The notes under the pieces are model-generated. The model was not told the origin of the DNA. It saw only the letters and a list, made by a program, of their open reading frames with translations, and ran no database searches. DNA of 2,046 bases from Escherichia coli (GTDB lineage: Bacteria; Pseudomonadota; Gammaproteobacteria; Enterobacterales; Enterobacteriaceae): assembly GCF_036507355.1 (NCBI RefSeq), contig NZ_AP027885.1. One strand, given 5' to 3'. The position numbers and the translations under genes were made by a program. This document shows positions 1-2,046 of the stretch, piece by piece (within the stretch, counting starts at the first letter, position 1; each line of letters opens with the position of its first letter).

Positions 1-1
1 C

Positions 2-403
2 CGTGGCACCCGTAGCCAGGTATCGATCTCACCGGAGGCGCTGGAGCCGCGTGTACTGCGGAAGGGTATTTTCACCAAAGACGTGGAAGATCAGGCAGCC
101 GTAGCCAAACGTTTAAGCCAGGCAGTGAACGATGGCTTTGCAGGAACCGTCGCTATGGCCTCTCAGAGCGCCCAGAATGCAAAAAGAGCGCGCGAGCTAC
201 AGAAGACTATGGATTCGCAGCAGAAACGCCTACAGAGCGTTACAGAGCCTTTTAAGGGGCTTTCCAGAGAGCAGATGACAGAAATCCTGATGATGGCTCA
301 GCGGTTTAAGCAGCAAAACCAGGAGAAGGAGAAACAGCAGCGTGTCGAACGTGAGACACAGCGACAGATGCGATCCCGTGGCATGGGCGGTATGGAGCGT
401 TAG
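2..403 (+). CDS. 3' portion of a CDS whose start lies outside the window; charged coiled-coil-like C-terminal tail; identity unresolved (possibly a relaxase C-terminal domain or another plasmid protein)
   Basis: Frame 2 is open from nt 2 to TAG at 401-403, with no in-frame stop upstream of the track's GTG at 83, so the gene begins beyond the 5' edge. The translation (...AKRARELQKTMDSQQKRLQ...QRFKQQNQEKEKQQRVERETQRQMRSRGMGGMER) is low-complexity and Q/E/K/R-rich. No catalytic motif recognised. Confidence 0.55.
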   Translation, partial: RGTRSQVSISPEALEPRVLRKGIFTKDVEDQAAVAKRLSQAVNDGFAGTVAMASQSAQNAKRARELQKTMDSQQKRLQSVTEPFKGLSREQMTEILMMAQRFKQQNQEKEKQQRVERETQRQMRSRGMGGMER

Positions 404-430
404 TTTTGATGCGATGCAGATAGGGTTAAC

Positions 431-455
431 GCCGCAAAACGAGGTCATTTGCGGC
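431..455. terminator. Hairpin between convergent genes (stem GCCGCAAA / TTTGCGGC, 9-nt loop); possible weak bidirectional terminator or RNA-stabilising stem-loop
   Basis: Seen in sequence: 431-438 gccgcaaa and 448-455 tttgcggc are exact reverse complements. It lies between the stop at 401-403 (+) and the stop at 466-468 (-). There is no clear U-tract on either strand, hence low confidence. Confidence 0.3.
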
Positions 456-465
456 ATTCCAGAGA

Positions 466-900
466 TTAGGTTCTGCCGCCCTGTATAACGCTGAGGCCGT
501 TTTTTAGTGCTTTCTTGTGGTTGCTGACAGTACCTTTCCAGCCAAACTGAGGGTTCAGACGGTAACTGTAACTGCGCCCTACTTTTGGGCCTTGAAGAAT
601 CACGGATAGGTCAATTAGCGCCTTAACCGAACGGCTTACATTGGTTTTCTGCATACCTAAAGCGTCGGCAATATCGGCTTGGGCAATTTGGATGTAATTT
701 TCATAATCGAGATCAGCTAACAGCATCATCAAGACTTTGAATTGCTCCCCTGTGAGGGTCTTAGCAAGGATCTTTAAAGCGTCTTGGTTCATAGTGAAAT
801 GCCTCTCAAAAGCTGACTTCTGTTTGGGTCGGATAACTGCGACAAAACTACCTACCTCTTCCCCTGTAGCAGTGTCTATCTGAGTAATTCGGTTACTCAT
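466..900 (-). CDS. 144-aa predicted winged-helix/HTH DNA-binding protein; candidate small plasmid replication initiator (RepL-like) or autoregulatory repressor
   Basis: ATG is the reverse complement of 898-900 and the TAA stop is the reverse complement of 466-468. An RBS GGGAGAG lies 8 nt upstream (rc of 907-913). The protein has an HTH-like segment (GEQFKVLMMLLADLD...IQIAQADIADALGMQKTNVSRSVKALIDLSVI). The gene has lower GC than its flanks. Palindromic repeats sit in its promoter region. The Rep-versus-regulator call is inference. Confidence 0.75.
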   Translation of the reverse strand: MSNRITQIDTATGEEVGSFVAVIRPKQKSAFERHFTMNQDALKILAKTLTGEQFKVLMMLLADLDYENYIQIAQADIADALGMQKTNVSRSVKALIDLSVILQGPKVGRSYSYRLNPQFGWKGTVSNHKKALKNGLSVIQGGRT

Positions 901-972
901 TTAAGAGGCTCTCCCAAAAAAATAGTTATCAATAATGATAACAACGTTATCAATAATGATAACTATCGTCAA
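901..972 (-). promoter_or_regulatory. Promoter/RBS region of the - strand gene, overlapped by operator-like repeats
   Basis: On the - strand: RBS GGGAGAG (rc of 907-913); -35-like hexamers TTGATA (rc of 927-932 and 948-953) and TTGACG (rc of 967-972); only weak -10 candidates (e.g. GATAAC, rc of 925-930). Exact promoter elements are uncertain. Confidence 0.4.
925..963. repeat. Two tandem 18-bp direct repeats (GTTATCAATAATGATAAC), each internally palindromic, 21-bp register; candidate operator or iteron array
   Basis: Seen in sequence: 925-942 and 946-963 are identical. Each is GTTATCA-ATAA-TGATAAC, and the 3-bp spacer AAC creates a further 7-3-7 inverted repeat between units, giving four alternating heptamers in total. 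Confidence 0.9.
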
Positions 973-1106
973 GCGAGAGCCGCGCCCCACAAGGGCTGAG
1001 AGAAGGCTCTCTTCTGTATCTTATAGCGAGAAGCTCATATGCCCGGATAGCGAACCCTATTTTCATCGGTTCGTGCGTAAGCATTTCTATGCCCGTTCAG
1101 GTGATA

Positions 1107-1196
1107 TTCCGCTTCCTCGTTCAGGCTGTTCGTTCCTCGCTGCGCTGCGGTACGCCTCAGCCTGACCTGCGGCGAGCGGCGCGTGCTCTTTCAAAG
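1107..1196. other. Segment resembling the primosome-assembly / single-strand initiation (pas, n'-site) region found downstream of ori in ColE1/pMB1-type plasmids
   Basis: Hand comparison with the pUC/pBR322 sequence recalled from memory. Colinear exact blocks: ttccgcttcctcg (1107-1119), ctcgctgcgct (1136-1146), ctgcggcgagcgg (1167-1179), and a 9/11 match ctctttcaaag (1186-1196), with insertions between blocks. Needs confirmation by alignment. Confidence 0.35.
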
Positions 1197-1382: not shown

Positions 1383-1413
1383 GTCTAGTGAGTACACTAT
1401 CATCCTGATAGTG
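1383..1413 (+). promoter_or_regulatory. Candidate oriT core / relaxase operator: nested inverted repeats sharing arms, about 70-95 nt upstream of the relaxase start
   Basis: Seen in sequence: TAGTG (1386-1390) - AGTA - CACTA (1395-1399), overlapping the 8-3-8 palindrome CACTATCA (1395-1402) - TCC - TGATAGTG (1406-1413). Alternative hairpins with shared arms are typical of MobV-type oriTs. A possible weak promoter overlaps: -35 TTGCGT (1371-1376), -10 TACACT (1393-1398). The functional assignment is inference. Confidence 0.35.
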
Positions 1414-1480: not shown

Positions 1481-2046
1481 ATGGCGAATTACGCGATAAT
1501 GCGCTGCAAAAAGCTGACGGGAATGGGCAGTGTGGCCAGCGCTTTGCAGCACTGCTACAGGGAGCGTGAGACGCCGAATGCTGACGCTGAACGGACACCA
1601 GAAAACTACTGCTCTGTGTCTCAGTCGGCAGATGAGGCGATGGGAAAGCTGCGGGAGCTGTTGCCGGAAAAACGCCGTAAAGATGCGGTACTGGCTGTTG
1701 AATACGTTATGACGGCAAGCCCTGAGTGGTGGAACGAGGCCACACCGCGGCAGCAGGCGGAGTTTTTCGCCCGTTCTGAGCAATGGCTGGAGAACAAATA
1801 CGGGAAAGATCGCGTTGTGGCGGCGGTGGTTCACAGGGACGAGGCCACCCCGCACCTGTCTGCGTTCGTGGTGCCATTGACGCAGGATGGGCGGCTGTCC
1901 GCGAAAGAGTTTATTGGCGGGCGGTCAAAGATGCGTGACGATCAGAGCACCTACGCTGAATCGGTAAAAAAACTGGGTCTTGAGCGCGGCATCGAGGGAA
2001 GCCGTGCCACGCATCAGACAGTTCAGCACTACTACGAATCGATAAA
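1481..2046 (+). CDS. mob: MobV-family (Mob/Pre, pMV158 MobM-like) plasmid mobilization relaxase, N-terminal relaxase domain; 3'-truncated by the window edge
   Basis: ATG at 1481 is preceded by the RBS. The frame is open through nt 2046 (188 codons, hand-translated, no stop), which is why it is absent from the ORF track. The translation (MANYAIMRCKKLTGMGSVASALQHCYRER...RKDAVLAVEYVMTASPEWW...AAVVHRDEATPHLSAFVVPL...LERGIEGSRATHQTVQHYY) matches, from memory, the conserved MobV blocks: the N-terminal M-x-Y-x-V-x-R-x-Q-K region, an HNER-like motif, the RKDAVL block and the HxDE..PH metal-binding motif. Confidence 0.9.
   Translation, partial: MANYAIMRCKKLTGMGSVASALQHCYRERETPNADAERTPENYCSVSQSADEAMGKLRELLPEKRRKDAVLAVEYVMTASPEWWNEATPRQQAEFFARSEQWLENKYGKDRVVAAVVHRDEATPHLSAFVVPLTQDGRLSAKEFIGGRSKMRDDQSTYAESVKKLGLERGIEGSRATHQTVQHYYESI

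Follow-up and report, generated by a model that had tools for sequence, protein, structure and literature searches.

The window considered here, a stretch of 2,046 nucleotides of Escherichia coli DNA (contig NZ_AP027885.1), is a circular permutation of a complete 2046-bp plasmid with two genes, a rep-like open reading frame (ORF) for a protein of 144 amino acids (aa) and the relaxase gene mobV. Comparison with related plasmids indicates, with a probability of about 0.8, that the 144-aa protein is the replication initiator of this plasmid; the fuller reading, in which it is an initiator from the RepL-related superfamily and at the same time its own repressor, appears hardly less probable. The assignment is made because close relatives of the gene stand alone on their plasmids, because the cassette around it is all that plasmids with unrelated backbones share, because this cassette changes places with the ori-repA cassette of pKL1, and because the protein is homologous to known replication proteins (Reps). 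A preliminary description of the DNA had held an initiator and a pure regulator to be equally likely. The evidence now favours the initiator, self-repression is very probable as well, and the two roles are compatible.

Besides the 144-aa ORF no replication gene is found on the 2046-bp plasmid, the only other gene being that of the MobV relaxase, which bears out the preliminary description on this point. A search of Rfam at a permissive threshold returned no RNAI or other ColE1-type RNA, its one match being a chance microRNA-like hit on palindromes, and the consensus sequences of the DnaA box and of the integration host factor (IHF) site are absent from the plasmid, so that there is no sign of another replication route. 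Replication by the MobV relaxase was rejected because relatives lacking mob exist. These results bear on the explanation of the protein as a pure autoregulated factor of transcription or copy control, with host enzymes replicating the plasmid from an RNA-primed, ColE1-like origin. The plasmid does carry an element resembling the primosome assembly site (pas) of ColE1 and pKL1, as this explanation would have it, but the lack of RNAI speaks against it, and once the promoter and the origin of transfer (oriT) are excluded only about 385 bp of non-coding DNA are left.

Relatives of the gene have been found in large numbers. A tblastn search of 72,556 plasmids (PLSDB) gave 273 matching records, and 166 of 5,426 complete E. 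coli genomes carry the cassette, with 364 of the 365 matching places on plasmids. Among 1.84 billion cluster representatives, at least 1,581 protein clusters (50% identity) match at E ≤ 0.001, mostly with lengths of 140–200 aa. Relatives of 70–82% identity reside on circular plasmids of 1306–1526 bp, on which no other ORF exceeds 80 aa. In pMNCRE44_1 (L004, 1506 bp) the rep gene is the sole annotated gene and the sole ORF above 80 aa; because amino-acid identity between this plasmid and the window is 81%, against about 72% at the nucleotide level, the ORF is considered to be under protein-level constraint. Plasmids with unrelated backbones have in common with the window just the rep gene and about 125 bp upstream of it. 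If the gene were purely a regulator, neither this selective retention nor its presence as the sole gene of 1.3–1.5 kb plasmids would be expected, as a self-regulating gene would have no reason to be there.

Cassette exchange points in the same direction. The plasmids L004 and L012 (1.3–1.5 kb) have a pKL1 backbone, including the pas element and a ColE1-type oriT (GCCAGTATACACTCCGCTA). Within L004, positions 545–1151, which hold a conserved 12-mer, two palindromes and the rep gene, stand in place of positions 687–1387 of pKL1 (L005), which hold ori and repA. The unit that replaces the pKL1 ori-repA cassette thus consists of the rep gene and about 165 bp upstream, and on the 3' side it joins the backbone exactly where the stop codons are. 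The swap implies functional equivalence of the two cassettes, which again argues against a regulator without a role in initiation. Identical or nearly identical copies of the enterobacterial plasmid family of the window also occur as short contigs (L017, L018, L021, L025, and L047), of low coverage where coverage is stated, in assemblies labelled as a Bacillota metagenome-assembled genome, Arthrobacter mobilis, Brevibacterium permense, and Mycobacterium angelicum. These off-host contigs most likely represent contamination and not the true host range.

The protein itself is an intact minus-strand product with one winged-helix domain, in agreement with the preliminary description, which had proposed profile and structure searches as checks. 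The Pfam model RepL (PF05732) is matched nearly from end to end, residues 6–132 against model positions 14–132 of 164 (E 7.5e-5, 22.7 bits), and the same model matches 25 of 56 homologues at E ≤ 1e-3 (best 7.5e-8). The Pfam model MarR_2 covers the helix-turn-helix core only (residues 49–98, E 3e-5). The top match in PHROGs is 'replication initiation O-like' (E 3e-6), no NCBIfam model is matched over any curated cut-off, and a sequence search of the PDB gave weak helix-turn-helix matches of the ArsR/TubR type only. AlphaFold2, run with an alignment of 56 family sequences (down to about 32% identity), predicts a single winged helix with a mean predicted local distance difference test score (pLDDT) of 90, with helices at 39–48, 51–62, 74–81, 85–97, and 125–134, wing strands within 101–115, and an N-terminus of strand and coil. 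Missing from this confident model is the helical domain by which MarR proteins dimerise. The preliminary description had also allowed for a match to a well-characterised family of non-replicative regulators; what was found is the MarR_2 match to the core without that domain.

Conservation in the 56 sequences extends beyond the DNA-binding core. G13, N68, and G123 are invariant, and T12, G13, and E14 are invariant or nearly so. Conserved segments include an N-terminal QxDxxTGE, LD[FY]EN, the recognition helix 85–97, the wing GPKxGRxxxYRLNPxxGWKG (or GPKxGRxxTYRLNPxxGWKG), and a C-terminal helix with VIxGG. The repressor-like fold and its structural matches, together with the MarR_2 match, can be cited in favour of a pure regulator, whereas the N-terminal TGE motif is common to RepL and needless for repression. 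With the evidence from relatives and from cassette exchange added, a pure regulator is improbable. At the C-terminus, four distant homologues (P0137, P0139, P0157, and P0266) end in GQGRLFD, EQPRLFE, NTIDMFEG, or GQGRLPLD, extensions that we take to resemble motifs of the QLxLF type that bind the beta sliding clamp; the window protein ends in GLSVIQGGRT and has no clamp-like motif.

The protein, presumed here to be an initiator, would act on DNA directly in front of its gene. Two identical copies of an exact 18-bp palindrome, GTTATCAATAATGATAAC, start 21 bp (two helical turns) apart, and no third copy is present in the plasmid even at three mismatches. The preliminary description had noted repeats beside the ORF and had expected a layout of rep gene, iterons, and single-strand initiation site (ssi); the rep gene, the repeats, and an ssi-like element are indeed there, but the repeats are a pair of promoter-overlapping palindromes and not a classical iteron array. 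Of 31 family loci that were inspected, 23 have tandem palindromes in a 20–21-bp register directly before the gene, among them loci from Enterobacterales, Bartonella, Methylococcales, cyanobacteria, and Pelomonas. The sequence of the palindrome differs between plasmids, and both copies within one plasmid change together.

These changes follow residue 87 at the start of the recognition helix. Position 5 of the half-site is T with Asn and C with His. Asn87 is paired with GTTATC in 10 of the 11 Asn loci that have palindromes (the window, L004, L008, L010, L012, L018–L020, L027, and L031); in the remaining one, L026, the half-site is TGAATC, which still ends in ATC. His87 is paired with GTTACC or GTTACA in L007, L009, L013, L023, L030, and L040, as scored by script, and in L033, as judged by eye, with L034 (half-site ATACAC) as the exception. 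Ser87 occurs with GTTAGC (L022), Gln87 with GTTGAC (L011), and Asp87 with GTT[AG]GG (L032 and L038); all these counts are uncorrected for shared ancestry. In Xenorhabdus, two near-identical proteins (L020 and L023) are distinguished by N87H, and the corresponding sites switch from ATC to ACC. Because the half-site covaries with residue 87, binding of the protein to the palindromes as a dimer is strongly, if indirectly, indicated, and the pairing may underlie types of specificity or incompatibility. Two further observations concern these sites. The plasmid pKM19s of Bartonella tribocorum (L008, 155–302) has the same two 18-mers (GTTATCATTATTGATAAC) as the window with a protein that is 42% identical, and it encodes a second, RepL-annotated paralogue. 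The contig L033, binned as actinobacterial, has two different palindrome pairs upstream of its homologue within 2290–2500, TGTAGTCCCCAGACTACA twice at about −212 and a CTTACCATTAGTGGTAAG-type pair beside the gene.

The palindromes also cover the core promoter. A consensus promoter scan prefers TTATCA/TATCAT at 962–935 to the promoter predicted in Table 1, in which the −35 is of the TTGAC(A/G) form that is kept just upstream of the first palindrome in most relatives. Both versions lie under the palindromes, and because of this overlap the protein very probably represses its own promoter as well. That the sole recognisable binding sites are on its own promoter is also what a pure regulator would show. 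A third possibility is a centromere-binding or maintenance protein of the TubR/ParR kind, which would bind tandem repeats for partition. It could account for the tandem sites and for TubR among the weak sequence and fold matches. The plasmids of 1.3–2 kb, however, carry no gene for a partner nucleoside triphosphatase, there are two sites only and these overlap the promoter, and the protein matches RepL over nearly its full length and is linked to proven Reps, which makes partition a very improbable function.

For an initiator an origin is needed as well, and the candidate for its core is the 12-mer AAGATACAGAAG, about 110 nt upstream of the ATG. In the related loci, which were collected with a 13-sequence alignment, the core AGATACAGAA of the 12-mer shows no variation across 14 aligned members, whereas nearly all flanking sequence varies. 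Among these 14 are a contig from Methylococcales, the protein of which is 49% identical to that of the window, and a plasmid from Bartonella, with 42% identity. More distant members have the variants AGAAACAGAAG, AGATATAGAAG, and GACATAAGG at the equivalent place. Between the promoter and the 12-mer, the window has a G+C-rich inverted repeat (975–1011) that is an A-rich tract in some relatives, so that no conserved unwinding element is apparent. The folding of the hairpin beside the 12-mer and of the pas region was not significant against shuffled sequences (z-scores −0.9 and −1.2 for the G+C-rich inverted repeat), and no weight is given to these structures. The pas-like signal seen in the preliminary description was substantiated, as 1096–1179 aligns with the element of pKL1 at a score reached by none of 500 shuffles. 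The same positions also align with the origin-distal segment of pMB1/ColE1, and the pUC segment matches pKL1 and L004. The element is a probable site of primosome assembly or lagging-strand priming. The ssi that plasmids of the pHW126 family have at the corresponding position is reportedly dispensable, yet prevents multimerisation (PMC6854812).

Taken as an initiator, the protein could work in the following way. Rep dimers would bind the palindromes at 925–963 through the recognition helix 85–97, residue 87 reading position 5 of the half-site, a step strongly inferred from the covariation. Their occupancy over the −35 and −10 would, to judge from the geometry, shut off rep transcription and set the level of Rep and hence the copy number. 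Bound Rep would then trigger initiation in the adjacent stretch of about 60 bp that ends in the 12-mer, as context and homology suggest; the N-terminal QxDxxTGE segment, for which a plain repressor would have no need, might carry the initiation function, and the analogy with pIGRK RepR' makes the invariant TGE segment the foremost candidate for a part specific to initiation. On the same grounds of context and homology, the pas-like element would allow the host primosome to prime the other strand.

Whether such initiation would involve a nick has to be weighed separately. A rolling-circle initiator would nick one strand at or near the 12-mer and hairpin, with the pas-like element as single-strand origin. 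Several relatives have a hairpin with ACAGAAG as one of its arms, and in the plasmid pJW1 the 12-mer core is located beside a pHW126-type CCCTTGATATTACT, which we take to resemble the nick sequence of pC194 and phiX174. The reverse complement of the 12-mer, CTTCTGTATCTT, was tried as a pC194 nick region and dropped, since only 9 of 16 positions agree. The rolling-circle mode was first proposed for pHW126 and for RepL plasmids of the pSN2 type. Rozhon et al. have reported relaxase activity of pHW126 Rep and the deletion of a duplicated origin (PMC2831885), and RepM of pIGMS31 has been reported to relax DNA, a nick having been mapped immediately 5' of the conserved region (bioRxiv 10.1101/2022.12.05.519187). 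The same study has also shown that RepM nicked an unrelated plasmid non-specifically and that two-dimensional gels contained theta-type as well as rolling-circle intermediates. In the window, only a remnant (CCCTTG) of the pHW126-type conserved region is found. No Tyr or His is invariant among the 56 family sequences (Y113 is Tyr in 44 of 56, otherwise Phe, Leu, or Trp), and Pfam and fold searches gave no match to an HUH or Rep_trans motif or fold, which argues against classical covalent nicking. Rolling-circle initiation is therefore rather unlikely. A non-covalent route, in which the initiator opens or primes the origin locally with host factors, may be somewhat likelier than nicking by a tyrosine, at about even odds only because of the relaxase activity reported and the two types of intermediates of RepM.

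Several points weigh against the 144-aa protein as initiator or against details of the proposed mechanism. The assignment draws on context and on remote homology, the Reps that are characterised or named being 21–38% identical to the protein. At 22.7 bits, the RepL score may fall under Pfam's own threshold, and a profile comparison (hhalign) with RepR of pIGRK gave a probability of only 35%. The fold is a generic winged helix, the top structural matches of which are the repressors CodY, PerR, MarR, and SmtB. Just two binding sites are present, each of them in the promoter, as for a plain autorepressor. The invariant 12-mer is no more than a candidate origin core, and no A+T-rich unwinding element is conserved among the family loci. 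Finally, the preference for a route without nicking could be wrong, given that relaxing of DNA in vitro has been reported for RepM and for pHW126 Rep (bioRxiv 10.1101/2022.12.05.519187; PMC2831885).

The gene may in addition encode a shorter protein. A hexamer (G/C)AGAGG is invariant 9 nt ahead of the conserved Met37 ATG in the 14 scorable relatives. The codon of Arg33 is AGG in 14 of 14 scorable loci, whereas Arg codons elsewhere in these genes are mixed, and the third positions of the codons of F31, H34, F35, T36, and N38 vary across the scored loci. The NCBI Prokaryotic Genome Annotation Pipeline (PGAP) and other gene callers often place the start of relatives at Met37. A nested product of 108 aa, consisting of the winged helix only and acting as an inhibitor, is plausible from this pattern; alternatively, the G-rich codons near Met37 may simply reflect the encoded amino acids. 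In pIGRK, the N-terminally truncated RepR' has been reported to bind DNA and to repress, but not to initiate (PMC6854812). The most far-reaching proposal, tentative at best, would be that a protein of 144 aa with one winged helix and no conserved Tyr is a complete initiator on two palindromes that serve as operator and origin, that the 108-aa form without the TGE segment is a DNA-binding inhibitor like RepR' of pIGRK or pi-30.5 of R6K, and that residue 87 is a one-residue switch of specificity and incompatibility. If true, hardly any self-contained replicon module smaller than this one of about 560 bp would be known, and it would serve as a very tractable model for RepL-type initiation.

The features of the plasmid are collected in Table 1. 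The rep gene and mobV diverge from a 580-bp intergenic region (901–1480), which must therefore contain the rep promoter, the vegetative origin, and oriT, and they converge on a gap of 62 bp that holds a hairpin, a probable two-way terminator. A sequence similar to this hairpin (AACGCCGCAAAATGACGTCATT) is found 3' of the rep gene in L004. The perfect inverted repeat upstream of mobV is a likely oriT hairpin of the MobV relaxase. The G+C content is 45% in the rep gene, 56% in mobV, and 53% in the whole plasmid, and the difference between the two genes fits a mosaic of modules. Many plasmids of 2.04–2.05 kb from E. coli and Enterobacter are 95–97% identical to the window, and matches of 97–100% identity were obtained among plasmids of 2.03–2.05 kb from these two hosts. 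The E. coli plasmid NZ_CP081700 (2028 bp) is 100% identical except for one indel of 18 bp (6 codons) inside mobV at 1831–1848 of the window, which adjoins an imperfect direct repeat (1731–1748/1836–1853).

Table 1. Features of the window, numbered from its first nucleotide; predicted and candidate elements are marked as such.
Feature	Position	Strand	Remarks
mobV, 3' part	1..403	+	Completes the 322-aa MobV relaxase
Hairpin AACGCCGCAAA...TTTGCGGCATT	428..458		Inverted-repeat search; candidate two-way terminator between rep and mobV
rep-like gene (WP_004193480.1)	466..900	-	ATG start, 144 aa, from the ORF listing; single winged-helix domain
Candidate internal translation start	790..807	-	GAGAGG 807..802, 9 nt, Met37 ATG 792..790
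Shine-Dalgarno-like GGGAGAG	909..915	-	8 nt before the ATG at 900; read from the sequence
Palindrome P2 GTTATCAATAATGATAAC	925..942		Copy nearer the gene; covers the predicted transcription start; inferred Rep-dimer site
Predicted rep promoter	944..972	-	-35 TTGACG 972..967, 17-nt spacer, -10 TAACGT 949..944
Palindrome P1 GTTATCAATAATGATAAC	946..963		Identical to P2; between -35 and -10; inferred Rep-dimer site
G+C-rich inverted repeat GAGAGCC...GGCTCTC	975..1011		Between promoter and 12-mer; varies among relatives
12-mer AAGATACAGAAG	1011..1022	-	Alignment of family loci; candidate origin core
pas/ssi-like element	1096..1179		Aligns with the pKL1 element
Perfect 8-bp inverted repeat CACTATCA-tcc-TGATAGTG	1395..1413		About 70 bp upstream of mobV; read from the sequence; candidate oriT hairpin
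mobV, 5' part	1481..2046	+	Continues across the window ends

The family is common, yet effectively invisible in annotation. Relatives go under the labels 'hypothetical', 'MarR family', or 'helix-turn-helix', and the inspected plasmids have no replicon type of their own; the NCBI pipeline calls some close relatives 'replication/maintenance protein RepL'. The plasmid L012 is typed by MOB-suite as Col(MG828), the type of pKL1-type replicons, a call that presumably comes from the backbone and not from the rep gene. Literature searches with the protein accessions, with AF141869, and with plasmid sizes found nothing relevant. Recognising the cassette of about 560 bp (12-mer, two palindromes, and rep gene) would permit the typing of very small plasmids and would explain how the module moves between backbones with MobV, with a ColE1-type oriT, and of the pKL1 kind. 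It would also offer a minimal system with natural specificity variants in which to study initiation of the RepL type, for which both theta and rolling-circle modes are under discussion. The interest of the system thus lies mainly in what appears to be a common, untyped, and minimal replicon with a clear pattern of protein-DNA recognition. The preliminary description had foreseen an unusually compact replicon partnered with MobV; it is compact and MobV is present, but it has precedents, and relatives occur alone on plasmids of 1.3–1.5 kb.

Among known systems, the closest named relative is the putative Rep of pJW1 from Selenomonas ruminantium (1410 bp; NC_004962, WP_011117219), a protein of 146 aa with 38% identity over 107 residues (E 1e-26). 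The pJW1 sequence was confirmed from its RefSeq record. Like the window, pJW1 has a TACAGAAG motif, a −35, two palindromes in a 21-bp register, a Shine-Dalgarno sequence, and the ATG. The host is of a different phylum (Negativicutes), the sequence of the palindromes differs (GTTGGTA...), and a pHW126-type conserved region, CCCTTGATATTACTGGATTT, follows TACAGAAG, of which the window keeps only the CCCTTG remnant. In pJW1 (L053, 340–440) the elements of both plasmid groups are joined, TACAGAAG being followed by CCCTTGATATTACTGGATTT and then by the two palindromes. Rozhon et al. in 2010 proposed a superfamily of pJW1, pSN2 RepL, and pHW126 Rep (PMC2831885). Comparison of the family profile by hhalign gave probabilities of 97% for RepM of pIGMS31 (117 columns), 95.8% for RepA of pKL1 (84 columns), and 80% for RepL of pSN2 (117 columns, including the N-terminal motif).

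The pHW126 family (pIGMS31 with RepM of 201 aa, pIGRK with RepR of 248 aa, and pHW126 with its Rep), located here by tblastn, comprises small enterobacterial plasmids of 2.3–2.9 kb with rep and mobilisation modules, which in pHW126 and pIGMS31 include MobV, as in the window plasmid. An ssi lies beside the origin in these plasmids. Their Reps have one MarR-like winged helix and repress themselves; they have been reported as trans-acting initiators of their own plasmids (PMC6854812; bioRxiv 10.1101/2022.12.05.519187; PMC2831885). Imperfect 18-bp palindromes of the form seen in the window are present in pIGMS31 (GTTATAGATTCCTATAAC) and pHW126 (GTTGTCAAAAACGTCAAC). The three plasmids have 3–4 iterons at 22 bp and separate operator repeats, whereas the window has two palindromes at 21 bp that would have to serve both roles; because the iterons share their form and length, these two sites resemble a shortened iteron array that has fused with the operator. 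The conserved region of about 20 bp in the pHW126 family, ACTCTCTAACCNTTGATATTACT, is absent from the window, which has AAGATACAGAAG conserved instead, and the four 20-bp iteron-like repeats and separate operators of the pHW126 module were not found in the window. The ssi next to the origin is present but of pKL1/ColE1 type rather than of pHW126 sequence. The Reps of the pHW126 family also carry long extra N- or C-terminal parts, and their plasmids have a G+C content of 31–37% (PMC2831885) as compared with 45% in the window gene and 53% in the plasmid. Since the conserved region and the four iterons are missing, the window plasmid does not belong to the pHW126 family as defined.

The RepL of pSN2 is of similar size and matches from end to end, including the N-terminal D-x-x-[ST]-G-E motif of the window protein, which aligns with IDEESGEVI of pSN2 RepL, although it is remote (about 21% identity) and its hosts are Firmicutes; the RepL sequence used was copied from a scanned supplement, so that errors in it are possible. 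MarR repressors have a winged helix of about the same length, act on palindromic operators, and repress themselves, as proposed for the window protein. They are unlike in that their N- and C-terminal helices form a dimerisation domain, whereas the model of the window protein is beta/coil at the N-terminus and has only one helix at the C-terminus; the setting of a one-gene plasmid also sets the family apart from them. Initiators of the Rep_3 type (RepA, RepE, and pi) have two winged-helix domains, WH1 and WH2, in about 250–350 aa, unlike the 144-aa protein, and rolling-circle initiators of the HUH and Rep_trans types have a catalytic Tyr and an HUH motif, neither of which is conserved in the family. 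The 144-aa protein thus falls outside the MarR-type regulators, the two-domain iteron initiators, and the HUH proteins alike.

The RepA of pKL1 (158 aa) is the sole gene product of one of the smallest natural plasmids (E. coli, 1549 bp) and is the initiator of this plasmid, with the origin upstream of repA. Tandem or inverted repeats lie just upstream of the gene, the winged helix with its wing-WKG motif is homologous to that of the window protein, and the pas-like element is common to both plasmids. Only the C-terminal two thirds of the two proteins are related (30% identity over 54 residues); the N-terminal third of RepA is unrelated and lacks QxDxxTGE, and in pKL1 the repeats and upstream region differ and AAGATACAGAAG is missing. 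According to the work of Burian et al. (1997, 1999, and 2003; cited in PMC3832669), replication reportedly depends on RepA, which binds sites in front of its gene and assembles into hexamers. With 146 aa in pJW1 Rep, 158 aa in pKL1 RepA, and about 158 aa in pSN2 RepL, small Reps of this kind are already known, and the view in the preliminary description that 144 aa is small for a Rep carries no force within the superfamily. Overall, comparison of the sequences suggests that the protein is best filed as a member of a pJW1-like branch of the RepL-related superfamily, sister to the Reps of pHW126 and pIGMS31 and to pKL1 RepA, and that its module would work like the replicons of these plasmids.

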